DNA of 64,000 nucleotides from Thermodesulfobacteriota bacterium (lineage in GTDB: Bacteria; Desulfobacterota; Desulfarculia; JACQYL01): contig CAXXLZ010000002.1 in the NCBI GenBank assembly GCA_963675595.2, positions 1,216,001 to 1,280,000 on the forward strand, written 5' to 3'. This document shows positions 1 through 25,507 of this stretch, one piece after another (the first letter of the stretch is position 1; each line of letters opens with the position of its first letter). The translations under genes and the position numbers were made by a program. The notes under the pieces were generated by a model. The model did no database searches and was not told where the DNA came from. It saw nothing but the letters and a program-made list of their open reading frames with translations.

Positions 1-438
1 GGAGATCTGCAAAGGCTCCGCGAACACCCCACCTCCGATCCCATAGGCCCTGTGATCCGTGTCATCGTAGACAAATCCGCCGTATCCGGCGAAAAAGGAG
101 TTCCCGTAGACAACGAGGTCCAATCCATACGGATTGTCGGCGTCGTCGGTGACCTGATGATCGAACTTGACCACGGCCCAGTCCCCCGTGCTGAAGGTGG
201 TGATGGCATCGTCTCCCCAGGCCGCCTCCACAAGACTCACATGGCTCGTTCCCCCGCCCCACGCCGGAATGATCGTGGTGGGTTTTCCCAAAAGGTCGTT
301 TGCATCGTTGTAAAGCCCGGAACCGTCCAGGCTCGCGGAACAATCCACCAACTCGGTGGCGAAAATCGAGGCGTGAGCCTGTCCGGCCGCCAAGATCAGC
401 ACCGTGCAGAGCAGGACGAACCTACCTACCATTTTCAT
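1..438 (-). CDS. Secreted cell-surface protein, partial (runs off the window); probably PEP-CTERM-type, possibly cobalamin-binding
   Basis: Not in the ORF track. Hand-translated open frame MKMVGRFVLLCTVLILAAGQAHA-SIFATELVD...VVKFDHQVTDDADNPYGLDLVVYGNSFF; signal peptide; AAGGAGG/GGGAGA RBS-like tract upstream; third gene of a co-oriented run. Confidence 0.8.
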   Translation of the reverse strand, partial: MKMVGRFVLLCTVLILAAGQAHASIFATELVDCSASLDGSGLYNDANDLLGKPTTIIPAWGGGTSHVSLVEAAWGDDAITTFSTGDWAVVKFDHQVTDDADNPYGLDLVVYGNSFFAGYGGFVYDDTDHRAYGIGGGVFAEPLQIS

Positions 439-469
439 TCGATTCTCCCTTTCCTCCTTTGCGCCCTCA

Positions 470-1090
470 TCATCCGACGGTCGTCCTGCGCCTTCTCCTG
501 AGTCCCGCCAGACCGACCAACCCGCTGCCCAGCAGCCACACCGCGCCGGGTATGGGCACCGTGGAGCATTCTCTGACGATCCAGTTGTTGTTCACGATGC
601 CGGCGGACTGGACCAAGCCCTGGTCTCCCGTTCTGCATTTCACGGTGCCCCCGAAGAAGTACACGCCGGCCACCTCGCCGGACCCGGTCACCCCGTACAT
701 CCTGGGATAGCCCTTGAAATAATCGGTCGCCCCGAGGAAGCTCACCAGGTATTCGATCTCGTCCAGCGGCCAATCAGAGGGATCACCGCTCCTCCAGTAG
801 CCGAGTTCAATGTCCGCGTTCACCAGAAGTTCAATCACTTCCGCCTTGGTGGCGTAGCGGAATCCCTCGAATTCTCCGCCATCCCCGAATTGGGTGGATA
901 CATAGCTTCTCGTCATGCTCAGCCCGAAGGACATATCGAGCCATTCCAACCCGGTTTCCGTGTCCAAAGTGACGCTCCCAGTCCCGAAAACCGCATCGTC
1001 CCGTTCCAGCAGAGAAGCATGCGTTTGGGAAATCAGGAGCAGTGAAAGCACGAATAAAGACGCAAGTTGCACCCATCGTAATCTGCTCAT
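470..1090 (-). CDS. PEP-CTERM (VPLPA-type) sorting-signal protein
   Basis: Signal peptide; C-terminus VPIPGAVWLLGSGLVGLAGLRRRRR. Confidence 0.9.
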   Translation of the reverse strand: MSRLRWVQLASLFVLSLLLISQTHASLLERDDAVFGTGSVTLDTETGLEWLDMSFGLSMTRSYVSTQFGDGGEFEGFRYATKAEVIELLVNADIELGYWRSGDPSDWPLDEIEYLVSFLGATDYFKGYPRMYGVTGSGEVAGVYFFGGTVKCRTGDQGLVQSAGIVNNNWIVRECSTVPIPGAVWLLGSGLVGLAGLRRRRRTTVG

Positions 1091-1124
1091 TTCTCAGCTT
1101 CCTTTTCTGTTTGATTTGTGCGCT

Positions 1125-1856
1125 TCAGCCGCGCATTCTGCGGCGAAAACCGATCAGACCCATCAAACCACTGCCCAGCAACCATATCGCGCCGGGAATG
1201 GGGACCACCGCCGCCTGTGCGGCCAAAGGAGTAATCGGCGCCGAACCGTCCCCGTATCCGGCAGTGCCGCTGAAACTCCAGCCGTCCCAGGAACCGTCCG
1301 ACAGATTGCGTGACGAAATCCCGTTTCCGGAATAGCCCCACTCGGAACCGCCGTCGCTTACCCAGTAACTCCAGTACCCGCTGTACCAGCCGTCCACGTA
1401 ATGATCGTCCGGGTCCTCGGGAGTCCCGTCTTCACCGTCCCATTCCCCCGGCACGTAACCGAACCCGTCATTGTCCAGGTCATAGCCGAAACCGGATACG
1501 GTGTAGGCGCCCCCGAACATGTCCCACCACTGCAGCCTGACGTACAGACGGGAATCGTCCCCGTCTAAGCCGCCCGCGTAGGGACCACCGCTCGCCGCAC
1601 CGTTTCCGAAAATAGCGGCGATCATATCGGCGCCGGTGGCCTCACCGTCCCATCGATAACCCCAAGCCAGACTCTCGGGTTCTTTGCCGTCGCGCCAGTC
1701 GATGACCATGGCGGCCTCATTGGAGCCTTCACCCACCCAGTAGGTAATGTCGTCAAAGCTGAAATCCACATACGGGTCCGCCGCGGCCGGCCCGCAGCAA
1801 ACCGCCGTCATCAGCAAAACCGCGGCGAATACCGTGGACAAATTCTTCATCTTCAT
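1125..1856 (-). CDS. PEP-CTERM (VPLPA-type) protein with a Trp/Tyr-rich domain resembling the DUF4430/transcobalamin-like beta domain
   Basis: Start MKMKNL after AAGGAGAG; signal peptide; YWVGEGSNEAAMVIDW...LAWGYRWDG and YWSYW..WGYS..G...R.LSDGSWDGW motifs; VPIPGAIWLLGSGL..RRR tail. Confidence 0.85.
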   Translation of the reverse strand: MKMKNLSTVFAAVLLMTAVCCGPAAADPYVDFSFDDITYWVGEGSNEAAMVIDWRDGKEPESLAWGYRWDGEATGADMIAAIFGNGAASGGPYAGGLDGDDSRLYVRLQWWDMFGGAYTVSGFGYDLDNDGFGYVPGEWDGEDGTPEDPDDHYVDGWYSGYWSYWVSDGGSEWGYSGNGISSRNLSDGSWDGWSFSGTAGYGDGSAPITPLAAQAAVVPIPGAIWLLGSGLMGLIGFRRRMRG

Positions 1857-2314
1857 TTTCAAGGCAACTCTCCTTGTGTGACGGAGCCTTCGCCATCGGA
1901 AGCGCTCCTCGTGCGCTATCACTTCTGTTCGTGCGTTCCTTCGCGTTCCGGCCCGGCGTTTTCGAAGGCCCACAAGCACGCTGCCCGGCGCCCACACGGC
2001 TTCCGGAAACGGACGCTTTATTCTTCGCATTGAATGCAGATTGGCTGATATCGCGAGGCGCGAGGGGAATCCGTGGAGAAAGTTCCCTTTCTCTTGGGAT
2101 TGACGGATACCGATGGATGGGTTATCCTAAGACTGTTCGTTCTCTCCTAGGAGAGGCGAACGGTACGCCCGGATTCGCGCCGGTGCGAAATTGGAAGGCC
2201 TGCATGGCGTCTTGGCGGAAGCGTGCGGGCCTTCTCCTTTTCTATCTTTTCTGTTCGAACGTTCTTCAGCACCTCCTTCCCATGGGCACGGCCCGTGCGT
2301 TTGCTTGTCCCCGC

Positions 2315-2363
2315 AAAAAAAAGGACAGCCGGGCTGCTGCAGAATGCGGCAACCCGGCTGTCC
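2315..2363 (-). terminator. Intrinsic terminator (expression platform of the c-di-GMP-I riboswitch)
   Basis: Minus strand GGACAGCCGGGTTGC-CGCATTCTGCA-GCAGCCCGGCTGTCC followed by T8; the 5' arm is the 3' strand of the aptamer. Confidence 0.85.
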
Positions 2364-2470
2364 GGAGTCGAACCTGAAGCGTTTCCGGGAACACGCTTCC
2401 GTCCGAACGTCTTTAGGACCCGTGGCTTTCCGACCCCCGGTTTCCCGGGGTGTGGCTTTCTCTCAAGTCG
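2345..2470 (-). ncRNA. c-di-GMP-I (GEMM-I) riboswitch with extended P3
   Basis: AAGCCACACCCCGG-GAAA-CCGGGGGTCGGAAAGCCACGGGTCC...GGACAGCCGGGTTGCCG matches the GEMM-I consensus (GNRA tetraloop, GGAAAGCC junction, AGCCGGGTTGCC 3' strand). Confidence 0.85.
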
Positions 2471-2621: not shown

Positions 2622-2684
2622 CGTTTACACCAATACCGTCGGCAATGCTTGTCCGATATTGCTAAAAACTTGGACAATGTTGGC
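2622..2684 (-). promoter_or_regulatory. Tandem AraC-type boxes plus -10 (promoter A)
   Basis: Minus strand GCCAACATTGTCCAAG-TTTTT-AGCAATATCGGACAAG-N20-TAAACG. Confidence 0.7.
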
Positions 2685-3074
2685 ATCGGGCAGATTTTCC
2701 GTCTTCGGGGACTGAACCTTGCCGAAGAAAAACCCGGACCGAGCGCTTCGCGCTCAATCCGGGTCGGTTGGAGGTAGGCCGCTTCCCAGGGTGAAAGGCG
2801 GCTGGAAGGAAACGAGTCGTTATCAGTCGGAGAGGTGTAAAACGCGATCTCCCACGCATCGCGCTTCATCCCTCGTTACCGCGACGTCCTCCATGTGCGC
2901 TTCGTACATCGGAAATTGCGCGCCTTGCCTGTCATTGTTCTTCCTCCGTCCGCAAGACTCGTTCAATCAAAACGGATCGCCCCGACTCCGCCCATACGGC
3001 CGGCCGACATGCGGTGTAATTTCTCCGCTCGCAAGTCGCTTCATCACGAAACCGCGAAGGACCGATGCTCATTC

Positions 3075-3902
3075 TTATCCCGCCTTTTGATTCCGGGATC
3101 CGAGCAGCTTCCTTTCCGCTTTCATATAGTAGGAAGGCGCCACCCCCATGAGTCTCTTGAATATTCGAGTGAAATACGAGACGTTGTTGAAACCCACCGC
3201 GAAGCAGGCCTCCGATACGTTCATCTTTTGTTCCAGCATGAGAAGCTTCGCCGCCTCGATCCTCCTTTTGTTCAGATACTCACTGAAGGTAAGGGAAGTT
3301 TCCGATTTGAACACACGGGAAAAATGATACTTACTCATGCCGTTGGCCTTCGCCACCTGTTCCAACGTGATGGGTTGCATATAGTTCTGTTCGAGGTACA
3401 GAATGGATTTCTCCAGGTTGCGGGGAATCTTCCAATGTTCCCTGCGCAGGGAGACGATTCGATTCGATGGGTTGGACCCCATGCCGCGGAAGACGTGTTT
3501 GATATGGCCGAAGGCCAGCCGGTAAAAAAAATCTCGGAGTTTCTCGTGATGTTGAAGCATCACCAGGAAATCCTCGCTCTCTTGAACGTAGCAGGTCACC
3601 GGCTCCAGGCACAACAGGAGTTTGATGGACGGGCTTTCGGAAAGCACCTCCACCAGACCGAACCAATCTCCACGGCGTATCGTGCCGCATAACGTGCTGC
3701 TCTGGCAGGGGACCTCCCAATGAGCCGACCCGGATGCCAACACCCCGATCTGTTTCACCTTCTCTCCGTTTCGAAGCAGCGTGGACCCGGTGGGAAACAA
3801 CACGGGGCGCAAACCCAAAACCACCGATTTCACGGCCCCCTCGTTCAGATCGTTCAAGGGGCACAGCTCGTTCATTTCGGTTTCGACCTCAGCCCGGCAC
3901 AT
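3075..3902 (-). CDS. Transcriptional regulator: cNMP-binding-like N-terminal domain plus AraC HTH
   Basis: FPTGSTLLRNGE...IGVLASG...GDWFG cNMP-fold pattern; C-terminal ITLEQVAKANGMSKYHFSRVFK...VGFNNVSYFTRIFKRLMGVAPSYY; ATG at 3902 follows GAGG (alternative GTG at 3911). Confidence 0.9.
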   Translation of the reverse strand: MCRAEVETEMNELCPLNDLNEGAVKSVVLGLRPVLFPTGSTLLRNGEKVKQIGVLASGSAHWEVPCQSSTLCGTIRRGDWFGLVEVLSESPSIKLLLCLEPVTCYVQESEDFLVMLQHHEKLRDFFYRLAFGHIKHVFRGMGSNPSNRIVSLRREHWKIPRNLEKSILYLEQNYMQPITLEQVAKANGMSKYHFSRVFKSETSLTFSEYLNKRRIEAAKLLMLEQKMNVSEACFAVGFNNVSYFTRIFKRLMGVAPSYYMKAERKLLGSRNQKAG

Positions 3903-4117
3903 CTTAGACACCTCTTTCGTTCCAAAAAAAAGATCTCACCTCGGACAACCAAGGCAAGACCTGGAACTCGCCGGTGAAGGACAGGATACACGGGGGCCCG
4001 ACGTCGCGCTTAGGGCAACGACCTCATGACCGGGACCCGGCGCTTGCGCCCGGTCCGGCCCGCTCGATCCTTCTCGGCATTCCACCATGCCTTGATTCCC
4101 GAGGGCATACAGTGGAG

Positions 4118-4285
4118 ATCATCTCGGCAGGTCTCCTGGCTTGTGGTTCGTCCTACTCGCCGCACCTTCCCGGACCGAAACGTCCAGTGGTGAATAGCGG
4201 CTTTCGTCCCCACACACAGTGGCGATCCCGCAGCGGCTTCCGCCCCGCTTTCCCTATTATGCCCTTACCGGGCGCCTGAGATGAT
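4118..4285 (-). ncRNA. Cobalamin (B12) riboswitch
   Basis: Minus strand AATAGGGAAAGCGGGGCGGAAGCCGCTGCGGGATCGCCACTGT...CCACTGG..CCGGGAAGG...AAGCCAGGAGACCTGCC (B12 box); P1 ATCATCTC/GAGATGAT. Confidence 0.93.
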
Positions 4286-4318
4286 AACGGATGTCATTAT
4301 GCTACTAGGTACACTTCT

Positions 4319-4347
4319 TGTATACCCTCAACAGCGGCGGTTGGCAA
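4319..4347 (-). promoter_or_regulatory. Sigma70-type promoter of the B12 riboswitch-regulator transcript
   Basis: TTGCCA-N17-TATACA just upstream of the riboswitch. Confidence 0.55.
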
Positions 4348-4358: not shown

Positions 4359-4405
4359 CTCTGCTCTCAGCTCTCAGCTCTCTGCTCTCTGCTCTCTGCT
4401 CTCAG
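4359..4405. repeat. Heptamer tandem repeat (CTCTCWG)x6
   Basis: ctctg ctctcag ctctcag ctctctg ctctctg ctctctg ctctcag. Confidence 0.9.
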
Positions 4406-7143
4406 GAAATATCGTCAAACATCAATTCCACGGTCGTCTCAACCGTCCCGAAGTTGGGAATCCGTGTTTCCACGGTTCCGCTGCCGGCATCAACGGCACT
4501 CAAATCAAATGTGTAGTCTCTACCGTGCAGGTCGTTGGATACGGATATCCCGTCGGTGTAGTCCGGGTCCAGGAACACGGTATACCCTCCGTCTCCCATG
4601 GTCGCCACCACCACACAGGAACCCGCGGAGTACTTCTGCAAATACAGGCTGAAAACCCCGTCGGCGCTTTTCCAGATCCCGTTTCGAGGATAAGTATCCT
4701 CGAAATCCACATCCGCGAACCTGAGTTCCACGGTCTTGATCACCTCGTCGAACCCCGGCAGAGAAGCCGTCACCGTGGCGCCGGTCGCGTCCGCGGCCGC
4801 CAGGCTCAGGCTGAATCCCTTGCCGTCGATATCCTGCCCCACGTTGATTCCGTCCCTGTAATCCGTATCCAGAAACACCGTGTACGCACCGTCGCCCATG
4901 GTGGCGATGACGATGCACGAGTTCGTGTCGTATTTCTGAAGATAGAGGCTGAGCACGTCGTCGGCGCTCTTCCAGATCCCGTTGGAGGGATACACGGCGG
5001 CGGAAGAGGTTACGGTAATATGGTCCGTAAAGGTTTTGGTCACGGTTCCATAGACGTTGGTCGCCGTCAGGGTCACCGTGTACTTGCCCGGCTGTGAGTA
5101 TACATGCACCGGATTCTGCTCCGCACCGGTGCCTCCGTCGCCGAAAATCCATGTCCAGGACGTGGGCCCGTTGGTGGATTCGTCGTCAAAGGTCACCGTA
5201 AGAGGCGCCGGACCGCTGGTGGGCGTGGCTGAGAACCCGGGAACGGGCGGTTGCTCGGAATCGATCACCGTGATGTAGTCCGTGCGAACCTTGAAGTCGC
5301 TTCCGCCGTCATTGGAAACGGTCAACTGCACGGAATAGGTTCCCGGTTCGGTATAGGTATGAGACGGGGCCTGGTAGTCGGCCGTTTCTCCATCGCCGAA
5401 ATCCCAACTCCACTGAGTGGGGTCGTCGGTGGATTCGTCTTTGAACATCACCTCCAAGGGCGCCTTGCCGCTGGTGGGAGCGGCGCTGAAAGCGCAGGTC
5501 GGAGCCGTGGTCGTCCCCCCGCCGTCGGTCACGGTAATGTAGTTCTGCCTCGTTTTCTCATCGGTTCCCGCACTGTTGGTAACCTCGAGGCCAACCGTGT
5601 ACGTGCCGGGAGTCGTATATTTGTGCGTGGGATTTTGGCTCCCGCTCTGGGAACCGTCTCCGAAATTCCACACCCAACCGGTTGGAACGCCCGTGGAGGC
5701 GTCCGTGAACGTCACCGAAAGAGGCGCCGATCCGTTCAAGGGCGCGGCCGTGAAGTCGCTCACCGGAGTGACCGGAGTAGCCGCTTCCGTTACCGTGATG
5801 TAGCCCGTTCGCGTCTTGCTGTCGGAATCGCCGCCGTTGGACACCGTCAACGTGACGGAGTAGGTCCCGGGATATTCGAAAGTATGAGGGGCATTCTGTG
5901 TGATGGCAGAGGGTGAATCGCTGAAATCCCACTGCCATTCCGTGGGCGATCCGTCGGATAGATCGGTGAAATGAACGGTCAAGGGAGCCGTACCGGTCGT
6001 GGGGTCCCCGGAAAAGTCGCACACCAGGTTTTCCACGGCCCCCGTTACGGTAATGTAGCCCACCTTGGTTTCGGTATCGTTCCCCCATTGATTCTTCGCA
6101 TAAAGTGATACCGTATATACCCCGGGCATTGAATAGACGTGAGATGGATTTTCCTGTCTTATGATCTTCCCATCCCCCAGATCCCATTTCCAACTGGTGG
6201 GGTCGTTTGAGGATTGGCTGGTGAATTGTACGGTGAGGGGCGCGGCGCCCGTGGTGGGGGTCGCTGAAAAAGCGGCCACAGGCGGATTGCCCTCCACCGT
6301 GATGAGCGCTTCCCTGGTTTTGCTGTGGCTGCCGAAGGCGTTGGTCACCGTAAGCACCACGGTGTACACCCCGTCGTTCTGATACACGTGCGCCGGATCG
6401 GACTGGGTGCTTGTGGACCCGTCTCCGAAATCCCAATCCCACTGGGTGGGGTCCCCCTCGGACAGGTCCGTGAAGGACACGGTCAACGGTTTTTCACCGC
6501 TGGTGGGCGCGGCCGAAAAGTCCGCCGAGGGAATCGCCTCCGTACCGTAATAGTCCGGTCCCCCGTCCCCCAGAAGCACGGTCTTGGAGGCGTCGGTATA
6601 CATATCCAGTTCGGAAGGACCGCCGGCTACAAGAAAGTCCCACCCGTCCTGCTCAATGAATTCGATCCACACATCCTCCCCGTTGGCAAGGCCTCCGTCA
6701 TATTGGAAGGTGGCCGTGAACAGAAGAAAATCCTCTCCTTCACTTATGTCTTGATGCGGCCCATAGCCGAGCAAACTCCATTTTCCGATATGCCGTATGG
6801 CGCCGGCGTCGGCCTCCGGATATTTCCGAGACCCCTTTTGCTCATACCAGGCATTAGGGTCGAAAGGATAATAAAGCATTTCCGTTGGGCCATAGGTCAG
6901 ATACTCAAATGTCAACTCGTCACCGTCCGCCTGAGTATCATCAAACCCCAGAGTAAGGCCCCAGGCGTGCAACTCGTCGTCGTGTTCCGCGTGGAGGTAC
7001 ACTTTCGCCTCGAAGGTTTCTCCGTTTTCGAGGGGCCCCCGGGAACCCACGGGCTGCATCCAGAGGAAGTGAGCAAAACCGGGAACAACGGACAGGAACC
7101 CGAACATCACTAGGACCACAAATCCGAGCGTCAACCTTCGCAT
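4402..7143 (-). CDS. Secreted protein: cohesin-like N-domain, six PKD domains, two C-terminal ~100-aa repeats
   Basis: Start MRRLTLGF after AGGAGAG; signal peptide; six F.A.PT.G.APL.V.F....WxWxFGDG-type units; two YP.NGIWKSAD repeats. Confidence 0.9.
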   Translation of the reverse strand: MRRLTLGFVVLVMFGFLSVVPGFAHFLWMQPVGSRGPLENGETFEAKVYLHAEHDDELHAWGLTLGFDDTQADGDELTFEYLTYGPTEMLYYPFDPNAWYEQKGSRKYPEADAGAIRHIGKWSLLGYGPHQDISEGEDFLLFTATFQYDGGLANGEDVWIEFIEQDGWDFLVAGGPSELDMYTDASKTVLLGDGGPDYYGTEAIPSADFSAAPTSGEKPLTVSFTDLSEGDPTQWDWDFGDGSTSTQSDPAHVYQNDGVYTVVLTVTNAFGSHSKTREALITVEGNPPVAAFSATPTTGAAPLTVQFTSQSSNDPTSWKWDLGDGKIIRQENPSHVYSMPGVYTVSLYAKNQWGNDTETKVGYITVTGAVENLVCDFSGDPTTGTAPLTVHFTDLSDGSPTEWQWDFSDSPSAITQNAPHTFEYPGTYSVTLTVSNGGDSDSKTRTGYITVTEAATPVTPVSDFTAAPLNGSAPLSVTFTDASTGVPTGWVWNFGDGSQSGSQNPTHKYTTPGTYTVGLEVTNSAGTDEKTRQNYITVTDGGGTTTAPTCAFSAAPTSGKAPLEVMFKDESTDDPTQWSWDFGDGETADYQAPSHTYTEPGTYSVQLTVSNDGGSDFKVRTDYITVIDSEQPPVPGFSATPTSGPAPLTVTFDDESTNGPTSWTWIFGDGGTGAEQNPVHVYSQPGKYTVTLTATNVYGTVTKTFTDHITVTSSAAVYPSNGIWKSADDVLSLYLQKYDTNSCIVIATMGDGAYTVFLDTDYRDGINVGQDIDGKGFSLSLAAADATGATVTASLPGFDEVIKTVELRFADVDFEDTYPRNGIWKSADGVFSLYLQKYSAGSCVVVATMGDGGYTVFLDPDYTDGISVSNDLHGRDYTFDLSAVDAGSGTVETRIPNFGTVETTVELMFDDIS

Positions 7144-7219
7144 TCGTTCTCTCCTGAAATCGGAGTTAGGGATTCGGAGCATGGTGTACAAATACGTAAC
7201 CTGCTTTACCTTGCTGAAC

Positions 7220-7282
7220 ATTATGGATGAAAAATTCGGCCCATTCTTGTCCGTTATTGCTCAAAATCAGCATTATCTTGCT
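7220..7282 (-). promoter_or_regulatory. Tandem AraC-type boxes plus -10 (promoter B)
   Basis: Minus strand AGCAAGATAATGCTGA-TTTTG-AGCAATAACGGACAAG-N20-CATAAT. Confidence 0.7.
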
Positions 7283-7411
7283 GTCTCGCCTTTATGCCCC
7301 GATTCTCGAAACGGATTCCATGCGTCCCATTCGGCCGTTCAACTGTGGGGAATATATATAAGGGATCCTCCGGACGGAAACCGATCCGGACCTCGCAAAA
7401 AAAAGCATGAC

Positions 7412-7474
7412 GGCAAGGAAGTCCATATTTTCCGCAATATAAGTCCAGCATCCTTCCCAAAGACCGGATATACC
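7412..7474 (+). promoter_or_regulatory. Tandem AraC-type boxes plus -10 (promoter C)
   Basis: GGCAAGGAAGTCCATA-TTTTC-CGCAATATAAGTCCAG-N20-TATACC. Confidence 0.65.
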
Positions 7475-7507: not shown

Positions 7508-7585
7508 CTTTCGAAAAAGCCACACCCGTCGTGAGGCGGGGCCGGAAAACTTCGGGTCTCCAGAGAGACGGCCGGGTTGCCGAAA
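7508..7585 (+). ncRNA. c-di-GMP-I (GEMM-I) riboswitch
   Basis: AAGCCACACCCGTC-GTGA-GGCGGGGCCGGAAAACTTCGGGTCTC-CAGA-GAGACGGCCGGGTTGCCG. Confidence 0.85.
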
Positions 7586-7607
7586 GGCAGCCCGGCTTTT
7601 GTTTTTT
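7570..7607 (+). terminator. Intrinsic terminator overlapping the aptamer 3' strand
   Basis: GCCGGGTTGCC-GAAA-GGCAGCCCGGC followed by TTTTGTTTTTT. Confidence 0.85.
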
Positions 7608-16128: not shown

Positions 16129-16270
16129 GGTGCTTCCAGCGGATCGGAGTACCACGGGCAATGAGGTTCCCTAAGGTCGAGCAATGGGTTTGCGGCTGAA
16201 ACGCAAGAGGAAAGGCTTCCACGGAAATGAGGGCCGTGACGCTCGTCACGGTCAGGCGGACAGGAAAGCT

Positions 16271-18120: not shown

Positions 18121-18150
18121 TTCCTAACGGATTTCCCCAAAGCGAGGACG

Positions 18151-19389
18151 ATGATGCCTGAGAAGTTGCGGGGTCTGCTGGTCAGCGACAGAACCGCCCT
18201 TGCGGCGGATATGCGGGACGAGATTGCCTCCAGAGTCAACCTGGAAGTGATCTTTACATCGTCCAATGCGGCTTATCCTCTGATCAAGGAAAAGGCGCCC
18301 AAGCTCCTTTTCATTGATGCGGTCCGGAATCCCGAGTCGGCCATGAGCCTCGCCGCACGAGTAAGACGGTTCCTCCCAGGCACTCTGGTGTTCGCCCTGT
18401 GCGAATCCAGGGATCCGGACCTCATCCTGCGCTTCCTGCGCGCCGGCGTCAGCGACTACCTCGCCTATCCGCCGGAGGCCTCGCACGTACTCATCTCCAT
18501 AGACACGGCCCTTGACGCGGAACGACGCAAACGAAGAGAGGGAGAAGTTCTCGCGGTGTTCAGCTGCAAAGGCGGACAGGGTGTGACGACCACGGCGGTG
18601 AATCTCGCCGATCATGTTCGGACCCTGACCGACGCCAAGGTCCTCCTCGTGGACTTCAATTTCCGATCCGGCGACGTGGGGCTGCAACTGGGCGGGCATA
18701 CTACATACGGTTTCACACGATTTATCCACGACATCGACAGACTGGACGAGAATCTTCTCTTCTCTTCCACGGAGCTACATCCCAACGGATTCTACCTCAT
18801 GTCCGCGAAACCGGATATGCGAGCCGAGGACGGAATCGCTCTGGAGCAGATCAGCCAGGGGTTTCACATATTGAAGGAGTTTATGGACTTTACCATCGTG
18901 GATCTGGGCAGCGACTTCAACGAGAGAACCGCAACCGTGTTGGATGTGGCGGATCGAATCCTTTTGGTGGCCCAACAATCCGTGCCCGCCGTGCGCGGCA
19001 TCGGCCGCGTGCTGTCGCTTTTCAGAGAAGCGGGATACGGCGACGAAAAAGTGAAGATCGTGATCAATCGGTTCGAAGGAAACCACATCGTGGGTCTTAA
19101 GGAAATCGAACGGGCCCTGCAGCGGAACGTCTGCGCAACGGTGGCCAACGATTACGCGGCGGTGTCGGATGCCGTGACCCAAGGGGACCTCCTCACCAAA
19201 GCCCATGACTCTTCTCGCGCGAACGCGGACCTGCGCCTCCTCGCGAGGACGCTCACCGGCATCCCGGAGAACGGCCACCGCCCCGACTCCAAATGGAAAC
19301 GGTTGCTCAAACGTTTTCCGTCTTCTCTGGGCATCCCCGCACGAACCCGCAAAGAGCCGCAGCCTGAAACGCATGAGGACGCATCATGA
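18151..19389 (+). CDS. cpaE: CpaE/TadZ pilus localisation ATPase (receiver-like + MinD)
   Basis: VFSCKGGQGVTTTAVNLA deviant Walker A; receiver-like N-terminus. Confidence 0.9.
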   Translation: MMPEKLRGLLVSDRTALAADMRDEIASRVNLEVIFTSSNAAYPLIKEKAPKLLFIDAVRNPESAMSLAARVRRFLPGTLVFALCESRDPDLILRFLRAGVSDYLAYPPEASHVLISIDTALDAERRKRREGEVLAVFSCKGGQGVTTTAVNLADHVRTLTDAKVLLVDFNFRSGDVGLQLGGHTTYGFTRFIHDIDRLDENLLFSSTELHPNGFYLMSAKPDMRAEDGIALEQISQGFHILKEFMDFTIVDLGSDFNERTATVLDVADRILLVAQQSVPAVRGIGRVLSLFREAGYGDEKVKIVINRFEGNHIVGLKEIERALQRNVCATVANDYAAVSDAVTQGDLLTKAHDSSRANADLRLLARTLTGIPENGHRPDSKWKRLLKRFPSSLGIPARTRKEPQPETHEDAS

Positions 19390-20744
19390 GTCTGGTCGAG
19401 CGACTCAAAGGGGGGATCAATGAGGGCAAGCCGCCTGATTGCAAGCTTCCCGGCGGCCGCCCGGACATGTCCGCCTACTACAAGCTTAAGAATAAAGTCC
19501 ATTCGAGACTCGTCGAAACACTGGATTTGGGAAGCATACCGGACCTCCCCAAAGAGACTCTCGAGGACTCCATCGGGGAAGCCGTCACGGAAGTCGCAAT
19601 CAAGGAGGGATTCCCGCTCAACAAAAACGAACAAGACGCCCTGGTCTCCGACGTATTGAACGAAATACGCGGTCTGGGACCCATCGAGCCTTTGATCCGG
19701 GACGATACGGTTCAGGATATTCTGGTGAACACCTTCGAGCACGTGTACGTCGAAAGAGAGGGGGTCCTGGAACTCACACCGATCCGTTTCCGAGACAATG
19801 AGCACCTAATGCAGATCATTGATAAGATCGTGTCTTCCGTGGGTAGAAGAATCGATGAGTCGTCTCCCATGGTGGATGCCAGACTATGGGACGGCTCCCG
19901 CGTCAACGCGATTATTCAGCCGGTGGCTCTCGACGGACCCATACTCTCGATCAGAAGATTCGGCTACCGGCCTTTGAGAATCGAAGATTTGGTGCAAAGA
20001 CGAAGCATCCCGGCCGAGATTGTCGAGTACCTGCAAGCCGCCATCCGGGCGAAACTCAACATGCTCATTTCAGGAGGAACCGGAAGCGGCAAGACCACGT
20101 TGCTCAACATCCTTTCCGCTTTTATTCCGAGTTCCGAGCGCGTGGTAACCATCGAGGACAGCGCGGAACTCCAACTGCAGCAAGCCCACGTCGCCCGACT
20201 GGAATCCAGACCTCCCAACGTCGAGGGGAGAGGCGAAATCACTCTGAGAAGCCTGGTCCGCAACAGCCTGAGAATGCGTCCCGATCGAATCATCGTGGGC
20301 GAGGTGAGGGGCGCCGAAGCCCTGGACATGCTCCAGGCCATGAATACCGGACACCAGGGTTCCATGAGCACCATTCACGCCAACACTCCTCGCGACGCCC
20401 TGTCCAGGCTGGAGATCATGGTGCGCATGGGCGCCCTGCAAATCTCCGAAGGAGCCCTGCGAAGCCTCATGGCGAGCGCGGTGAACATCGTCGTTCACTT
20501 GGAACGTCTGTCCGACGGCAAAAGAAGACTCCTTTCCGTGTCCGAAGTCGTGGGAATGGAGGGTGAGGTCATCGCCATGCAGGAGGTGTTCGTCTTTGAA
20601 CGGCGGGGCGTTTCCTCCTCCGGCCGCATACGGGGTGAGTTCAAAGCCACGGGTGCGCCTTCCATTTACGTCGAGCATATGAAGCAATACGGAATAACGA
20701 TCGACCCCGCAGTGTTCAAACTGCAAAAGCCTGTGGGGGATTAG
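19386..20744 (+). CDS. tadA: TadA/CpaF assembly ATPase
   Basis: GGTGSGKTT; TIEDSAEL; LRMRPDRIIVGEVRG; MNTGHQGSMSTIHAN. Confidence 0.97.
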   Translation: MSLVERLKGGINEGKPPDCKLPGGRPDMSAYYKLKNKVHSRLVETLDLGSIPDLPKETLEDSIGEAVTEVAIKEGFPLNKNEQDALVSDVLNEIRGLGPIEPLIRDDTVQDILVNTFEHVYVEREGVLELTPIRFRDNEHLMQIIDKIVSSVGRRIDESSPMVDARLWDGSRVNAIIQPVALDGPILSIRRFGYRPLRIEDLVQRRSIPAEIVEYLQAAIRAKLNMLISGGTGSGKTTLLNILSAFIPSSERVVTIEDSAELQLQQAHVARLESRPPNVEGRGEITLRSLVRNSLRMRPDRIIVGEVRGAEALDMLQAMNTGHQGSMSTIHANTPRDALSRLEIMVRMGALQISEGALRSLMASAVNIVVHLERLSDGKRRLLSVSEVVGMEGEVIAMQEVFVFERRGVSSSGRIRGEFKATGAPSIYVEHMKQYGITIDPAVFKLQKPVGD

Positions 20745-20747
20745 AGC

Positions 20748-21707
20748 ATGCAATCAGTGGTGTTCATTCTGGTGTTTGCTTCGGTGCTGCTTTCGTTCGT
20801 GGGATTGTATCTTCTTTGGACAAACCGGCGCACCGTTTCCAAAGACTTCGTACTGGAACGAATGGTTCCGCGCGAAACGGGGGATGCCCTGGCGTCGGAG
20901 CAGCGTACGGCCCGCTTGAGAAACGCGGGTTGGGTGGAAACCGTGTGCGCCCCTTTCATCAGGCTCGATCTCCTGGCCCCCCTGCTCTCTTCCATCGGGA
21001 TTCCCTGTTCGGCCGCAACCTTTCTGTGGATTGTCCTCCTCTCCGGTGGGCTCCCATTCGCGCTGTGCCTCGCGGCCTCGGGTTCCCTAAGCGTGGGTTT
21101 TATCGCGGCCTCTATCGGCCTTTCCGTGCCCTTCGCCTACTTGACGTACCGAAGAAAGAGAACGGAGAGGAAGCTGGTGGAGCAATTTCCCGATGCCCTC
21201 GAATTTACCGTTCGCGCTCTTCGCGCCGGTCAGTCTTTGGACAAGGCCCTGCAGGGCCTCGCATCCAACCTCACGGAACCCATGTCCGGTCAAATCCGCT
21301 TCATTTACGATGAAATGTCCCTGGGACTTCCCTTCGCCGAAGCCTTCAGAAGGTTCGAATCGCGATTTCCCAAGGTAGCCGAAGTGAAGATATTCTGTAC
21401 CGCTCTGATCGTACACAGAGAAACCGGAGGAAATCTTGTCCGCATCCTCGAAGTATTGAGCGACAACATCAGGCAACGCATGCGACTGGACTCCCAGATA
21501 AAAGCGACAACAGCCGAAGTCAGGATCACGGGCATTATTTTGGGGCTGCTTCCCTTCGCCCTGCTGGGAGTCTTCTACCTTCTGAATCCCGAGTATATTC
21601 GGGTGCTGTTCATCCATCCGGTGGGACGGAAACTGCTCCTCTCCGCCGCGGGTCTCGAACTTATCGGTTTTTCGGTCATGCGTGCCATGACCAGGGTGGA
21701 GATGTGA
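20748..21707 (+). CDS. tadB: TadB inner-membrane platform protein
   Basis: QFPDALEFTVRALRAG...RETGGNL T2SSF motif. Confidence 0.92.
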   Translation: MQSVVFILVFASVLLSFVGLYLLWTNRRTVSKDFVLERMVPRETGDALASEQRTARLRNAGWVETVCAPFIRLDLLAPLLSSIGIPCSAATFLWIVLLSGGLPFALCLAASGSLSVGFIAASIGLSVPFAYLTYRRKRTERKLVEQFPDALEFTVRALRAGQSLDKALQGLASNLTEPMSGQIRFIYDEMSLGLPFAEAFRRFESRFPKVAEVKIFCTALIVHRETGGNLVRILEVLSDNIRQRMRLDSQIKATTAEVRITGIILGLLPFALLGVFYLLNPEYIRVLFIHPVGRKLLLSAAGLELIGFSVMRAMTRVEM

Positions 21708-21710
21708 CCA

Positions 21711-22622
21711 ATGGATCGGCTTCTCCCTGCCGCCGCCTTTGTCGCCGTACTGGCGTTGTGTATGTCGGCGGTGTCGGCATACGAAAAACGAAAAAGAAGA
21801 GAGCAGTTGCTGCAACGTCTTTCCGTATCTTCGGACACGCAGGAATCCGGCTTAAAAGAACAGCTTCTGGAGTTCCTCGGGTCCATGGGACGTTTTGGTG
21901 TGCCCAAAAAAGAGGAGGAAGCCCTGCGGATTCGCAAGGACCTTCTCCACGCCGGTTTTCACGGCGAAGACATTCTTCTTCAATATTACGGTGCTCGTTT
22001 GTCCCTCGGCTTGGCATTCGCGATTCTGTTTCCCCTGTTCCTCGCGATGGTAGGCAAGTCCGTGTCACAGAACCTTTTCTACATTCCTTTCGCCCTGACT
22101 TTGGGCTACTACCTGCCCCCCTTGTTCGTCGCGAGAGCGAAGAAGATACGCGGACGAAGGATATTCCGTGAGCTCCCGGACACCATTGATTTGCTGGTCA
22201 TCGGTCTGGAAGCCGGTTTGAGCCTGGATGCCGCACTGTACCGGGTAAGCAGGGAAATGAAGAACATGGCGCCCACCGTGAGCAAGGAGTTTGGAAGGTA
22301 CTTCTTTGAAACACAGGGAGGAATTCCGAGAAATGAGGCGCTTTCCAACATCAAGAAGCGTTCTTCCGAAGAAGGACTCCGTTCCTTGGTGGACGTCTTG
22401 CTGCAGTCCGTCAAATTCGGAACGGACATGAGTGCCGCTTTGAGAGCATATGCGGAATCCATGCGTTTTCAACGAGTCGTTTTAGCGCAGGAGAAAGCGG
22501 CGAAGATAGCGCCCAAGCTCACCATACCCATGATCCTCTTCATCTTGCCGGCCCTTGTCATCGTCATCCTGGGTCCGGGGGCCATCCGCCTTCTGGAACG
22601 GCTGTCCGGGAGCTTCTTCTGA
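21711..22622 (+). CDS. tadC: TadC inner-membrane platform protein
   Basis: ELPDTIDLLVIGLEAGLSLDAAL...AQEKAAKIAPKLTIPMILFILP. Confidence 0.93.
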   Translation: MDRLLPAAAFVAVLALCMSAVSAYEKRKRREQLLQRLSVSSDTQESGLKEQLLEFLGSMGRFGVPKKEEEALRIRKDLLHAGFHGEDILLQYYGARLSLGLAFAILFPLFLAMVGKSVSQNLFYIPFALTLGYYLPPLFVARAKKIRGRRIFRELPDTIDLLVIGLEAGLSLDAALYRVSREMKNMAPTVSKEFGRYFFETQGGIPRNEALSNIKKRSSEEGLRSLVDVLLQSVKFGTDMSAALRAYAESMRFQRVVLAQEKAAKIAPKLTIPMILFILPALVIVILGPGAIRLLERLSGSFF

Positions 22623-23449
22623 TGGAATCTCAACGCTTGGCGACAACATCAAGAACCACCACCCGGGTTCGATTCCTTCTTGTTTCTATTTGTTTGGTTT
22701 GCTTGGTGCTTACCACGGGATGCCGGTCCCATCTGGAAAATACTCGGGGAGAATCAACGGAGGAGCTCAAAAAGGAGGCCCTGGAAAGGAAACAGGCTCT
22801 CGATGAGCTGGATTCCAAATGGCGGACCGAAGAACCGGACCACGTGGCCCTGGCTCGCATCATGGTGGACCGCAAGCTGTACGATGTTGCGTTGCGCCTT
22901 CTCCGGGAATCCGATGCACCGGACAGTGCGGAACGCTTTTACCTGGAAGGTGTGTGTCATCGGGAAAAGAGCCGTTATGAAACGGCGATTCTTCAATTCA
23001 AGAAAGCAATCGAGTTGTCCCCGCGTTACTCACAGGCCTACGAGGGAATCGCTCTTACGCACGACCTCATGGGACAGAGGGAAAGCGCACACGAGTACTA
23101 TGCAAAGGCCATCGAGGAGAATCCTTCCAGCTCTCGATTCTACAACAACTTCGGTGTGTCGTTGCTGGTGGCCGGCCGATACGAGGAAGCGGCGGAGCGC
23201 TTGGAGACCTGCGTACGGCTGGATCCGGAGTCTCTCCGCGCCTTCAACAACCTTGGCCTGGCCTACGGGCTGGCGGGCAGGGAGGAAGACGCCCTTAAAG
23301 CCTTCTTGAAGGCCGGAGATACGGAACATGCTTACAGGAACATGGCCTTCATGTACCGGGTCCGAGGAAACAAAGAAAAGAGTCGAGAAATGGTCCATAA
23401 GGCCCTGGAGCCGAAAGACATCAAGGATGAAGGTGCCAAGAAACCCTGA
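22622..23449 (+). CDS. tadD: TadD-like TPR lipoprotein (pilotin)
   Basis: Lipobox LTTGC; multiple TPRs (FYNNFG, AFNNLG). Confidence 0.8.
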   Translation: MESQRLATTSRTTTRVRFLLVSICLVCLVLTTGCRSHLENTRGESTEELKKEALERKQALDELDSKWRTEEPDHVALARIMVDRKLYDVALRLLRESDAPDSAERFYLEGVCHREKSRYETAILQFKKAIELSPRYSQAYEGIALTHDLMGQRESAHEYYAKAIEENPSSSRFYNNFGVSLLVAGRYEEAAERLETCVRLDPESLRAFNNLGLAYGLAGREEDALKAFLKAGDTEHAYRNMAFMYRVRGNKEKSREMVHKALEPKDIKDEGAKKP

Positions 23450-23519
23450 ACCCGGCAGGCCTTTTCCGGCGGACTGAACCAGGGGTTCCGGCATCCCCTG
23501 CCCTGAGTCGGATACGGTA

Positions 23520-25037
23520 ATGACAAAGCGAGGAAAAGACATGGGACCCGCCGACGACCAAAAGCACCACCGGCGCACGTCCTGGACGGGAAACGAACAA
23601 GGTTCCGTGGTCCTCGTGGTGGCTGCGGGCATGCTGGTCATTCTCGGATTCCTGGCCCTCGTCCTGGACGGCGGCTACCTCTACGCAACGAGGAACAAAT
23701 ACCAAAACGCCGTCGAGGCCGCGGCAATGGCGGGCGCCATCCATTTGTGCGGGTCCGATCCCGAACTCACGGCTCGGGAAATCGCTCGGGAGAACGACGT
23801 CCCTTATTCCGAGGAGGAAGGTCTCGTTGTCGTTTTCGGTTTCTATGACGAGCACGACGACTACGGGGACTTCCCGGAATACAAGGACTTCGTTGAAGAC
23901 CCGTTTCCCGAAACGAGCAGAAACGAGGCGGTGCGCACCGGCGGCACCGATCCCGAGTATAACAACGCCGTGCTGGTTTCCCTGAACGGAAGCGTTGACA
24001 CCGCCCTGGCCGGCGTATTGGGATACCATGTGGTGCAGGTTTCCGCGGCCGCGGTGGCCTATCTGGAAAGGTACCTCATGGTCTCTTTGGAGGAGGACGG
24101 CGAAGGAATCACCACCGCTTCGAAATCCTGGGATTGGACCGACGGAGGAGGCAACAGCAACCATAACCAGCCTGAATTCCGCAACGGCAATCTTTACAGC
24201 AACGGAGACATTACCTTTTTCACGGGCACCACCTGCACCGGCCCGACCTTTGTCGATTCCAAGGCCTATGCGCATGGAACCGTGAGTCCGGAAGAACTCG
24301 GGACCAACCAGGCTTCGCTGCTGACTCCTCCCGGGACTGATTGGGAGGCCCTGCGGGAAGCGGCGGAAACCCACGGCAAGGTCATCGACTCGCTCTTCTT
24401 CCAGACTCTTCCTCAATACAACAAAGCCCTACGCAAAGGCGTGGATCGCTACGGAAACTGCTACCGATGCAATACGGACGGGTCAAACCCCTATTTCACC
24501 CCGCGTCCGGGCAATCACGACGGCAGAACCTATTACGTGAGTGAAGACGTGGGAGATTCCCTCTGGATCGGCGACGTTCAGTGCAGCGAACTGTACTCCG
24601 AAGAATACGACGTAACCAACCTTACCCTGGCGTTCGAATCGGACCACCTGGGATTCAATCACGACACTCCCGTCATCACGTGGGGAGGCGAGGAAGCGGA
24701 CGAAACGGTTCGGTTTTACGGGAGGGATTTGATGATGGGAGCCGTCTCCGATTACGAATACGCCAGTGACAGCGGCAATCTATTGGAGGGCGTGGTTTTC
24801 AATGCTGAAAGGGACTTCGGATACCGGCCCGCCGGCGGCGGCTTCGGGGATGCGGAGGATTTGCCCCCGGAGATTCGGAAGCTTCGGGTCTTTGCGGGGG
24901 AACGCATCATCATCGGAGGGTACGAAGGATACATAGCGCATCAGGACCGATACCCGGTCGGCTTTGACGCCAATTTCGGCCCGCCTTGCCCACCCTCCAT
25001 GGTGCGCCTGGGGATGCTCGAACACACAGACGACTGA
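23520..25037 (+). CDS. tadG: TadG-like minor pilin/adhesin with a large unknown C-domain
   Basis: NEQGSVVLVVAAGMLVILGFLALVLDGGYLY..RNKYQNAVEAAAMAGA. Confidence 0.85.
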   Translation: MTKRGKDMGPADDQKHHRRTSWTGNEQGSVVLVVAAGMLVILGFLALVLDGGYLYATRNKYQNAVEAAAMAGAIHLCGSDPELTAREIARENDVPYSEEEGLVVVFGFYDEHDDYGDFPEYKDFVEDPFPETSRNEAVRTGGTDPEYNNAVLVSLNGSVDTALAGVLGYHVVQVSAAAVAYLERYLMVSLEEDGEGITTASKSWDWTDGGGNSNHNQPEFRNGNLYSNGDITFFTGTTCTGPTFVDSKAYAHGTVSPEELGTNQASLLTPPGTDWEALREAAETHGKVIDSLFFQTLPQYNKALRKGVDRYGNCYRCNTDGSNPYFTPRPGNHDGRTYYVSEDVGDSLWIGDVQCSELYSEEYDVTNLTLAFESDHLGFNHDTPVITWGGEEADETVRFYGRDLMMGAVSDYEYASDSGNLLEGVVFNAERDFGYRPAGGGFGDAEDLPPEIRKLRVFAGERIIIGGYEGYIAHQDRYPVGFDANFGPPCPPSMVRLGMLEHTDD

Positions 25038-25207
25038 GGACCGCGTTCGGAAGTTCCCCAGTCTATGACTGCGGAATATGATGCATTGACGTCTGATGCG
25101 CAACACTCTCGCCATGCGGCCGGCCCACATCAATGCCTGAAATGAAGGGAGAATGTCCCGTGAAGAGACTCGAGAACCGTGAAAGGAAGTCTGTTCGACG
25201 CAGGACC

Positions 25208-25507
25208 ATGAGGACGCCTTGGCGCTGTTTGCTCCTGTGCGTGGGCCTCACCGCCTGCGCCTGTTCCGCGACGCCGGAACGCGCCGCCATGGAAACCAAC
25301 GCGGCCTTTCGAGGCTATTTCGAGGCTTCCTTCACCGCTCAGGTGATCAACCGGAATGCTCCGGCCGATGCAACACCGGTGGAAGGCTATCCCGGTGAGA
25401 TCGCGGCAAAGGCCTATCAGGACTTCAAGGATGGCTTCGGGGAAGCGAGTTTCGAAGAGCAGGTGGGACAAATGCAACTGGGAGATGAGGCTTTCGCCGA
25501 CAAATAG
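25208..25507 (+). CDS. Small Tad-associated lipoprotein
   Basis: Lipobox-like LTACACS; AQVINRNAP..TPVEG.PG motif; last gene of the tad run. Confidence 0.65.
   Translation: MRTPWRCLLLCVGLTACACSATPERAAMETNAAFRGYFEASFTAQVINRNAPADATPVEGYPGEIAAKAYQDFKDGFGEASFEEQVGQMQLGDEAFADK

Follow-up and report, generated by a model that had tools for sequence, protein, structure and literature searches.

The 64,000-nt window analysed here (positions 1,216,001 to 1,280,000 of contig CAXXLZ010000002.1 from a Thermodesulfobacteriota bacterium) contains a candidate regulon, the elements of which were found in its first 25.5 kb. The regulon is centred on a gene for an AraC-family regulator (hereafter AraC) preceded by a cobalamin riboswitch. 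It was considered probable, at roughly 0.6 and from sequence comparison, that these elements constitute a two-signal cascade for cell-surface structures, answering to low B12 and to cyclic diguanylate (c-di-GMP) and conserved in a group of Thermodesulfobacteriota. An initial annotation of the same DNA had proposed that the AraC relays low B12 to about 20 surface genes, and comparative genomics lent support to that proposal.

In the circuit as proposed here, a cobalamin riboswitch and a terminator, both present in the leader, would control transcription of the AraC gene, so that AraC would be made mainly when coenzyme B12 is scarce. An AraC pair would then bind two direct 16-bp boxes, the sites of which are conserved, and would recruit RNA polymerase to four promoters, A to D. 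Downstream genes were read directly from the window; their regulation is predicted. Promoter A would serve genes for PEP-CTERM proteins and promoter B the gene for a cohesin-like/PKD protein; promoter C would serve a beta-propeller bearing a dockerin-like tail, a cohesin-like PEP-CTERM anchor, a small membrane protein and a DUF1573 protein, and promoter D the flp/tad operon. Transcripts A and C would be read through only with c-di-GMP bound. Because this second riboswitch must also be passed, their output would correspond to low B12 AND high c-di-GMP.

The AraC locus displayed the following elements, listed in the direction of transcription:

4296-4324, minus strand: sigma-70-like promoter TATACA-17-CATAAT, called purely from its likeness to the consensus (9 of 12 matches), just upstream of the cobalamin riboswitch.
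4110-4294, minus strand: cobalamin riboswitch aptamer (RF00174), scoring 103.2 bits (gathering score 31.5) and covering the whole model, positions 1-189.
3931-3962, minus strand: intrinsic terminator of the riboswitch expression platform, before the AraC start, with a 14-pair stem (-18.5 kcal/mol) and T8.
3075-3911, minus strand: AraC-family regulator with an N-terminal cyclic-nucleotide-binding-like (CNB-like) domain and a C-terminal double helix-turn-helix (HTH).
2731-2765, minus strand: strong terminator ending the AraC transcript, with 16 pairs, 10 of them G-C.

The B12 riboswitch and the AraC named in the initial annotation were both confirmed. Pfam matches of the protein were HTH_18 (PF12833, 2e-23), HTH_AraC (PF00165, 1e-21) and cNMP_binding (PF00027, 3.8e-8). 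Among solved structures, the family profile matched the CNB domains of PKG and PKA as well as the DNA-binding domains of AraC, SoxS, MarA and Rob. By our reading of the family alignment, the N-terminal domain is without the conserved arginine of the phosphate-binding motif of PKA and CRP. The start may lie a few codons inside position 3911, a 99%-identical protein (P0001) being 260 aa long. The family is small: a 90%-identity collection contained 19 full-length relatives, 17 of which have a cNMP_binding domain, and 1.84 billion proteins gave 55 representatives at E <= 1e-30. A box scan of the window gave no AraC box upstream of the promoter at 4296-4324(-). Folding of 4130-3900 revealed an alternative long-range pairing that takes up the 5' arm of the terminator at 3931-3962. 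Going by how this riboswitch class behaves and by the prediction in PMC9481103, we infer that the riboswitch would turn the AraC gene off with cobalamin bound.

The four promoters displayed the architecture reported in the initial annotation (16-nt box, TTTTN, 16-nt box, exactly 20 nt, hexamer), with letters and coordinates exact in every case. They are listed here together with their counterparts in L001, a collinear locus of a relative whose AraC is 67% identical:

2622-2684, minus strand: promoter A, a pair of 16-bp boxes at 21-bp spacing, then 20 nt and TAAACG; L001 counterpart at 9046.
7220-7282, minus strand: promoter B, a pair of boxes, then 20 nt and CATAAT; L001 counterpart at 5039.
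7412-7474, plus strand: promoter C, a pair of boxes, then 20 nt and TATACC, weaker than the other three; its L001 counterpart, at 4692(-), scores 16.1 bits.
12342-12404, plus strand: promoter D, boxes at 12342-12378, 20 nt, TAGAAT; preceded by one more box-like element (12321-12336).

Training on the full set of eight boxes would have made the test circular, so each promoter was left out in turn and a matrix from the other three was scored, as two boxes 21 bp apart, on both strands (127,928 positions). The left-out promoters reached 23.4 bits (A, rank 5), 27.0 (B, rank 4), 17.6 (C, rank 5) and 26.6 (D, rank 4). Higher scores came only from the training promoters and from D read in a shifted register (12321), so that each was the best non-training site of the window. 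The next real positions scored 12.7-14.9 bits. The best of 20 dinucleotide shuffles reached 16.0, 17.4, 17.9 and 23.1 bits for A, B, C and D, respectively; A, B and D therefore stood above chance, while C, which only matched the level of its best shuffle, was borderline when taken alone. The remaining 39 kb of the window (25-64 kb) contained no further tandem-box site.

Promoters A to D were devoid of a -35 element and their -10 hexamers were weak. With the hexamer taken as the -10 element, the distal box would occupy about -69 to -54 and the proximal one about -48 to -33, where it would take the place of the -35 element, a layout that suggests a class II activator. The mark of such an operator was taken to be direct repeats separated by some two helical turns, of which the proximal one reaches the -35 region; all four promoters display it. 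Direct-repeat sites of AraC/XylS-family class II activators include araI1-I2 for AraC, Pm for XylS and the marbox for MarA and SoxS. A refined consensus from 54 half-sites was approximately AGCAAnAaAgTcCaAg, in which two conserved sub-boxes, GCAA and CAAG, are separated by one helical turn. Promoters C (7394-7409) and D (12321-12336) also share a third, A-rich box-like element (CGCAAAAAAA..GCAT), located 18 and 21 bp before box 1, respectively; loci L015 and L022 of relatives likewise displayed three boxes in a row.

A family-alignment scan, restricted to one genome per species, gathered 80 loci, of which 29 (L001-L028 and L041) belonged to Thermodesulfobacteriota or 'Deltaproteobacteria'. They were scanned with a matrix built from the eight boxes of the window only, at thresholds of 18 or 20 bits. 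Across 24 AraC-homologue loci (362 kb), 18 tandem matches above 20 bits were found at 21-bp spacing, distributed over 15 loci, against zero or one match at each of spacings 15, 17, 19, 20, 22, 23, 25, 27, 31 and 32. The box (at least 18 bits) lay within 1.2 kb of the AraC gene in 21 of the 29 loci. The motif, whose conservation in related genomes the initial annotation had proposed as a check, thus recurred in relatives at a spacing that was almost exclusively 21 bp. The box usually followed the AraC stop codon by 4-230 bp, and in L008, L011, L022 and L023 it stood just before AraC's own riboswitch. The hexamer started with 'TA' at exactly +20 in 20 of 26 instances. In L001 the boxes of orthologous A and B were kept above 18 bits (the C site at 16.1 bits), while the 20-nt spacers of the orthologous promoters had diverged. 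With a matrix refined on the relatives' sites, L017 was clearly recovered, whereas L018 scored no higher than control loci.

The loci intended as controls did not provide a clean negative set, since several of them hold AraC genes followed by a tandem box. Such a box stood directly after the AraC gene in L024-L028, whose AraC genes are short and HTH-only, and in L062, L063, L072 and L080. The 46 other loci found by the same peptide patterns, none of which displayed a box above 18 bits, were used as background. Sites outside the Thermodesulfobacteriota were found in betaproteobacterial (Polaromonas-like) loci (L072:1184, 3678, 5235 and 7264; L063:2814 and 7361; L080:5588) and in an Anaerolineales locus (L062:10306). 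The betaproteobacterial boxes end in CTAA, keep the 21-bp period and follow an AraC gene of the same HTH type. They precede genes for a subtilisin-like protease, a polyhydroxybutyrate (PHB) depolymerase and a glycosidase in L072, and, in L063, for a large protein that belongs to no known family and for a VanY-like peptidase; that of L062 precedes an ATP-binding cassette (ABC) permease gene. Covariation of the recognition helices with CAAG versus CTAA box ends was sought in 12 aligned HTH domains and gave no clear pattern. As the box also occurs beside riboswitch-free AraC genes of other phyla, it is not in itself a mark of B12; and as it is spread across unrelated neighbourhoods, it appears to go with the type of AraC rather than with Tad or PEP-CTERM genes.

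This spread bears on whether AraC is the protein that reads the boxes. They could be read by another factor or be a structural promoter element, the nearness of AraC reflecting shared synteny; AraC is syntenic with Tad and PEP-CTERM genes, so that a promoter element of theirs would travel with it anyway. Such an explanation was judged very unlikely, since the box follows AraC genes of the same HTH type amid quite different neighbours (protease, PHB depolymerase and glycosidase in L072; ABC permease in L062) and precedes AraC's own riboswitch in L008, L011, L022 and L023. Moreover, GCAA and CAAG sub-boxes one helical turn apart with a 21-bp period recall the pattern of AraC/XylS sites such as the marbox, and no other DNA-binding gene was conserved in the cluster. 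Binding by AraC was retained as the preferred reading.

Counts for the cobalamin riboswitch upstream of AraC refer to 28 assessable loci, L014 being left out because a contig end cuts the locus. In 24 of them a cobalamin riboswitch lay on the same strand, at most 650 nt upstream of AraC, and in 17 of these 24 a terminator (hairpin of -8 kcal/mol or stronger plus a T-run) stood between aptamer and gene. The AraC open reading frames (ORFs) of L022 and L024-L028 were only ~110-170 aa long (e.g. L024:9980-10324 and L022:9836-10351), displayed the HTH domain alone and were followed by the box; their HTH-only status was assigned by Pfam for L022 and L024 and by ORF length for L025-L027. The short forms of L022 and L025-L027, in contrast to that of L024, were still preceded by a cobalamin riboswitch. 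Because AraC is there little more than an HTH, the RNA is the only visible sensor, and it apparently substitutes for a sensor domain in the protein. In L018, two paralogous units of cobalamin riboswitch and cNMP-like AraC (9842-10753 and 15923-16750) were found 6 kb apart.

In several loci the genes under neighbouring riboswitches were classical B12 genes, encoding a TonB-receptor plug, methylmalonyl-CoA mutase, cobalamin adenosyltransferase, CbiA/CbiC and a BtuF/BtuC-like ABC transporter. Within 10 kb around the AraC module, L019 (830-1017(-), 1265-1451, 7365-7552 and 9445-9629), L023 (650-837, 6575-6761 and 8252-8436) and L026 (four sites) each had three or four cobalamin riboswitches, with a radical-SAM gene also among those controlled; in these three loci the AraC module sits within B12 gene neighbourhoods.

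Two of the four window promoters were followed by a second kind of riboswitch:

2344-2465, minus strand: c-di-GMP-I-type aptamer, best model c-di-GMP-I-GGC, scoring 60.9 bits (gathering score 59) and enlarged by a long insertion in P2.
2323-2363, minus strand: terminator that uses the aptamer's 3' strand as its 5' arm, then T8; ON-switch-like platform of leader A.
7510-7585, plus strand: c-di-GMP-I-type aptamer, c-di-GMP-I-GGC model, 68.8 bits against a gathering score of 59.
7570-7597, plus strand: terminator overlapping the 3' strand of the aptamer, then a T-run; ON-switch-like platform of leader C.

Both aptamers were only just over the cut-off of the GGC-variant model (RF01051 / RF03167 variant). 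The minimum-free-energy folds of leaders A and C both formed the terminator that overlaps the aptamer. Since the terminator needs the aptamer's 3' strand for its 5' arm, folding of the aptamer around its ligand would block termination, and both elements look like ON switches for which c-di-GMP is the probable ligand. By our own reading, 11 of 13 c-di-GMP aptamers were followed by a terminator built from the aptamer's 3' strand, and all 13 had the same 5' junction. A relic cobalamin riboswitch in leader A was also considered and rejected: a lax Rfam scan of 2300-2640 showed the c-di-GMP aptamer and chance matches only in this 150-nt leader. Leaders A and C contained a c-di-GMP aptamer only, and a tandem adenosylcobalamin (AdoCbl)/c-di-GMP gate is therefore not present in the window. 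The B12-only regulon of the initial annotation was thus supported for its B12 part and incomplete as to its inputs: c-di-GMP riboswitches would also gate two of the four transcripts, which would make the regulon a two-signal one.

Tandem gates were nevertheless encountered in relatives. Eight pairs of a cobalamin riboswitch followed by a c-di-GMP riboswitch were found in the target leaders of seven loci (L002, L003, L005, L006, L008, L011 and, twice, L014). A box of at least 18 bits preceded five of the eight (L002, L003, L006 and both pairs of L014); the L008 tandem had only a 15.2-bit site, and L005 and L011 had none at that position. In L024, L026 and L028 the box was followed by a cobalamin riboswitch. 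Where target leaders carry their own cobalamin riboswitch, the circuit would form a coherent feed-forward loop.

The target classes named in the initial annotation recurred behind the box in relatives. It preceded flp/tad operons in seven loci (L007, L009, L012, L015, L019, L021 and L023), and also PEP-CTERM genes and a PKD gene; a dockerin-like gene followed it in L017 (with the refined matrix) and in L018 (at a borderline score). Tad genes adjoined AraC in at least 13 of the 29 loci. Proteins with a DUF4465 domain were encoded downstream of AraC in seven loci (L002, L003, L006, L011, L013, L014 and L022; E 1e-42 to 7e-62), in L013 ~100 nt after the AraC gene, and PEP-CTERM-like tails were clearly matched in three of the seven. 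DUF4465 is the BtuJ-type domain, and divergent members of the family bind B12 according to the available part of PMC13398666. Corrinoid capture, as suggested in the initial annotation, accordingly drew support from the relatives, but not from the window, whose targets displayed no B12-binding domain.

How much weight B12 carries may be questioned on this evidence. The system could be a c-di-GMP biofilm programme in which AraC answers mainly to a ligand of its CNB-like domain, with the riboswitch trimming the AraC level and B12 being a side input. This would agree with the c-di-GMP riboswitches on two of four transcripts, two GGDEF cyclases in the same window, the strong match of the AraC family profile to CNB domains and the want of B12-binding domains among the window targets; c-di-GMP riboswitches also precede PEP-CTERM genes elsewhere with no B12 link in the available text of PMC12530212. 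It was nonetheless judged rather unlikely, given that the cobalamin riboswitch is kept before AraC in 24 of 28 loci, that HTH-only forms retain it as their only visible input, and that target leaders with a cobalamin riboswitch of their own and DUF4465 targets each occur in seven loci. A leading role for B12 was preferred.

The sign of the response could also be the opposite: AraC might repress, or the riboswitch might be a rare ON switch, so that surface genes would be made when B12 is plentiful. The direction of the circuit is indeed deduced, the leader fold giving two alternative structures without showing which of them the ligand favours, and a box over the -35 region could equally block RNA polymerase. 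Against this, a missing -35 element and weak -10 hexamers fit dependence on an activator, and the box positions resemble those of AraC at araI and XylS at Pm. Further cobalamin riboswitches with terminators in the target leaders of relatives, and DUF4465 targets, make sense under shortage. In its available part, PMC9481103 predicts OFF for these AdoCbl riboswitches. We regarded the opposite sign as distinctly unlikely and kept activation under B12 shortage as the preferred direction.

Several observations weigh against the low-B12/c-di-GMP cascade. Four of the 28 loci (L006, L024, L028 and L041) were without an upstream riboswitch and eight of 29 without a box of at least 18 bits near AraC. 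The boxes of L062, L063, L072 and L080 were not accompanied by a riboswitch, and the targets in L063 and L072 were secreted hydrolases. AraC carries a sensor-like (CNB-like) domain of its own, for which reason B12 may not be the dominant signal. Within the window, promoter C did not exceed the highest-scoring of 20 shuffles, promoters A and C had poor -10 hexamers, and neither DUF4465 (PF14717) nor another B12-binding domain was found among the scanned targets, operon A being cut by the window edge.

In these sulfate-reducer-type bacteria the cascade would probably serve to attach or aggregate cells and to capture corrinoids at their surface when B12 is short. A more far-reaching and tentative proposal, to which we would give somewhat less than even odds, is that B12 shortage acts as a developmental cue: the riboswitch would be the sensor of a factor that in some relatives has no protein sensor domain left, and this factor would command a Tad pilus, a PEP-CTERM-anchored cohesin/dockerin-like scaffold and B12-binding surface proteins, only at high c-di-GMP. 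The cells would then attach to surfaces or to neighbours that produce corrinoids, and would harvest corrinoids by contact.

The predicted targets of promoters A, B and C were as follows:

1125-1862, minus strand: PEP-CTERM protein, SCO2322-like; the signal peptide begins at a later Met, the listed ORF running to 2030.
470-1090, minus strand: PEP-CTERM protein, Lcl_C/DUF1566-like by likeness only, with a C-terminal tail.
1-438, minus strand: N-terminal portion of a secreted protein that belongs to no known family; operon A continues past the window edge.
4402-7221, minus strand: large secreted protein of 939 aa with a cohesin-like N-domain, six PKD domains and two C-terminal repeats.
7791-9275, plus strand (also listed from 7599): secreted beta-propeller with thrombospondin-type-3-like repeats and a duplicated dockerin-like C-terminus.
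9404-10087, plus strand: cohesin-like domain with a VPLPA/PEP-CTERM anchor (TIGR03370, 28.5 against a curated cut-off of 25.35).
10408-10965, plus strand: small membrane-anchored protein for which no family was found, kept in the cluster in L001, L013 and L017.
10962-12227, plus strand: DUF1573 / Ig-like protein, its L001 ortholog 50% identical.

In operon A, the protein at 1125-1862(-) has an ortholog in L001 (9385-10320, 58% identical), and the one at 1-438(-) has orthologs at L001:10362-11201 and L008:14628-15581, neither with a Pfam family. The Lcl_C match of the protein at 470-1090(-) was found only in relatives (L014:1291-2007 and L014:2041-2733), under the Pfam cut-off. The PEP-CTERM proteins of the initial annotation were borne out by a PEP-like motif, a transmembrane helix and a basic tail. 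Such tails were present at 470-1090(-), 1125-2030(-) and 9404-10087(+); only the last exceeds a curated cut-off, the first two matching several PEP-CTERM models below theirs. No exosortase was seen among the large ORFs of the window.

The 4402-7221 protein matched PKD_4 in six stretches (7e-108), and its N-domain is 55% identical, as a paralog, to the protein at 9404. The C-terminal 230 aa (4402-5100(-)) consist of two tandem ~95-aa repeats of no known family. For the 9404 protein, a model at a predicted local distance difference test (pLDDT) score of 67 gave cohesins as the best Foldseek matches in the PDB (E 3e-5 to 1e-3, template-modelling score 0.5-0.63 on the target). The model of the 7599 protein (pLDDT 87) was a beta-propeller with Foldseek matches to generic WD40-type propellers; a BtuG-like propeller was also looked for, and as no B12-binding protein occurred among the 50 matches listed, no such claim is made. 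The tail of this protein displays a conserved, duplicated loop-helix pattern (D-x-D/N-x-x-G-x-V...D...F-R), and many of its 76 homologues carry PF00404 (Dockerin_1) or PF02412 (TSP_3). Desulfosarcina is among the genera with homologues of target proteins. The window proteins gave no Pfam Cohesin or Dockerin_1 match at E up to 1, and the 9404, 7599 and 1125 proteins had no PDB sequence match at E up to 10. Of the cohesin/dockerin modules put forward in the initial annotation, the cohesin-like fold was backed by the model, whereas the putative dockerin depends on the duplicated pattern and on the homologues' PF00404. Prediction of a complex between the 9404 cohesin-like domain and the 7599 dockerin-like tail scored 0.01 against a mark of 0.32, a 'no answer' that weighs neither way.

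Promoter D precedes the Flp/Tad pilus operon, in which the components expected of such a pilus (Flp, TadE/G, RcpC/CpaB, secretin, TadZ, TadA/CpaF and TadB/C) were all found in order between 12483 and 25037:

12483-25507, plus strand: complete operon; the same gene order occurs in L007, L012, L017, L019, L024 and L041.
12483-12650, plus strand: flp.
12912-13325, plus strand: tadE.
13238-14635 and 14749-16128, plus strand: two cpaB/rcpC genes.
16184-16663, plus strand: pilus-N protein.
16651-18120, plus strand: secretin.
18151-19389, plus strand: tadZ-like.
19386-20744, plus strand: cpaF/tadA.
20748-21707, plus strand: tadB.
21711-22622, plus strand: tadC.
22622-23449, plus strand: TPR protein.
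23520-25037, plus strand: tadG.
25133-25507, plus strand: conserved small ORF.

No Peptidase_A24 match, as expected of a prepilin peptidase (TadV/CpaA), was obtained among the scanned operon ORFs, and the gene may be elsewhere in the genome; the relative L023 has a Peptidase_A24 gene after flp.

Among known systems, AraC/XylS class II activators share with the present one a double HTH, direct repeats of 21-bp period with the proximal one reaching -35, and paired sub-boxes. Unlike in AraC itself, the sensor is here CNB-like rather than a cupin and is absent in some relatives; unlike in these activators generally, the amount of regulator would be set by a riboswitch, and the box sequence is its own. 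In Listeria, a B12 riboswitch acts in trans, via the antisense RNA AspocR, on the AraC-family regulator PocR of propanediol and B12 metabolism. In both cases a B12 riboswitch would set the level of an AraC-family regulator; here, in contrast, it lies in cis in the regulator's own leader and the targets are surface structures.

The closest RNA-based likeness was found in Desulfobacca acetoxidans, for which two tandem AdoCbl/c-di-GMP-I riboswitches and one AdoCbl/c-AMP-GMP example were described as NOT-A-AND-B gates (Sherlock et al. 2022, PMC9481103). In the part of that paper available here, AdoCbl OFF and c-di-GMP ON are predicted for the tandem pairs, their function is left open with speculation on conductive pili and haem, and no transcription factor, operator or target function is named. 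The two riboswitch classes, the phylum and the NOT B12 AND c-di-GMP logic are the same, and relatives of the window carry such tandems; the B12 input of the window would, unlike theirs, be relayed via AraC instead of acting in the target leaders. Bacteroides loci with B12 riboswitches encode the surface B12-binding lipoproteins BtuG, BtuH and BtuJ (DUF4465), as far as the available text of PMC13398666 goes. Induction of B12-binding surface proteins by B12 shortage would be common to both systems, DUF4465 occurring among the relatives' targets. In contrast to Bacteroides, the anchor is here PEP-CTERM (exosortase) rather than a lipoprotein, the window itself is without DUF4465, the regulon as seen includes no TonB-dependent transporter, and a pilus and cohesin/dockerin-like modules appear to be co-regulated. 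Methylophaga nitratireducenticrescens, like the window, displays c-di-GMP riboswitches directly upstream of PEP-CTERM/VPLPA-CTERM genes (c-di-GMP-I riboswitches in the window); unlike here, the available text of PMC12530212 reports no B12 input, AraC operator or pilus link.

The initial annotation knew of no described system with this wiring. As regards the AraC layer this stood, a full-text search (subscription journals and the supplements of PMC9481103 lying outside it) having turned up no publication in which a B12 riboswitch controls an AraC whose targets are Tad or PEP-CTERM genes. It did not stand for tandem AdoCbl/c-di-GMP riboswitches, which the available part of PMC9481103 already describes. 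The parts are all of known kinds, and the wiring appears to be new.

Elsewhere in the window, two GGDEF diguanylate cyclases (48297-49952(-) and 53309-55441(+)), one of them with a 7TMR-DISM sensor, and a further PEP-CTERM protein (52139-52840(-)) were observed 25-30 kb from the regulon; neither box nor riboswitch was found at the GGDEF genes or in the 52139-52840(-) region. Downstream of the Tad operon lie a PAS/sigma-54 activator gene (28848-30266(+)) and a cluster (31083-39147) for aldehyde:ferredoxin oxidoreductase and heterodisulfide-reductase-like iron-sulfur/flavin (Fe-S/FAD) proteins. The genes of 28848-39147 represent the usual metabolism of an anaerobe, and nothing visible ties them to the regulon. 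A patch of low G+C content (40001-42000; 0.49 versus ~0.57) harbors a Fic/DOC-family gene with a winged-helix domain (40697-41869(-)) and may be a small acquired island; two weak box-like matches 22 bp apart were seen in the 3' part of this gene (40931-40968(-)).

Riboswitches almost always control enzymes or transporters for their own ligand. The B12 riboswitch described here appears instead to set the level of a transcription factor commanding about 20 pilus and surface genes, and this arrangement appears conserved across many Thermodesulfobacteriota. If this is true, it would link scarcity of a cofactor to attachment in syntrophic or sediment anaerobes and provide a function for the tandem AdoCbl/c-di-GMP riboswitches described in 2022. 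A defined operator, a regulator and two RNA sensors would then be open to direct testing, and the PEP-CTERM-anchored DUF4465 proteins of the relatives point to a corrinoid-capture system outside Bacteroidota.

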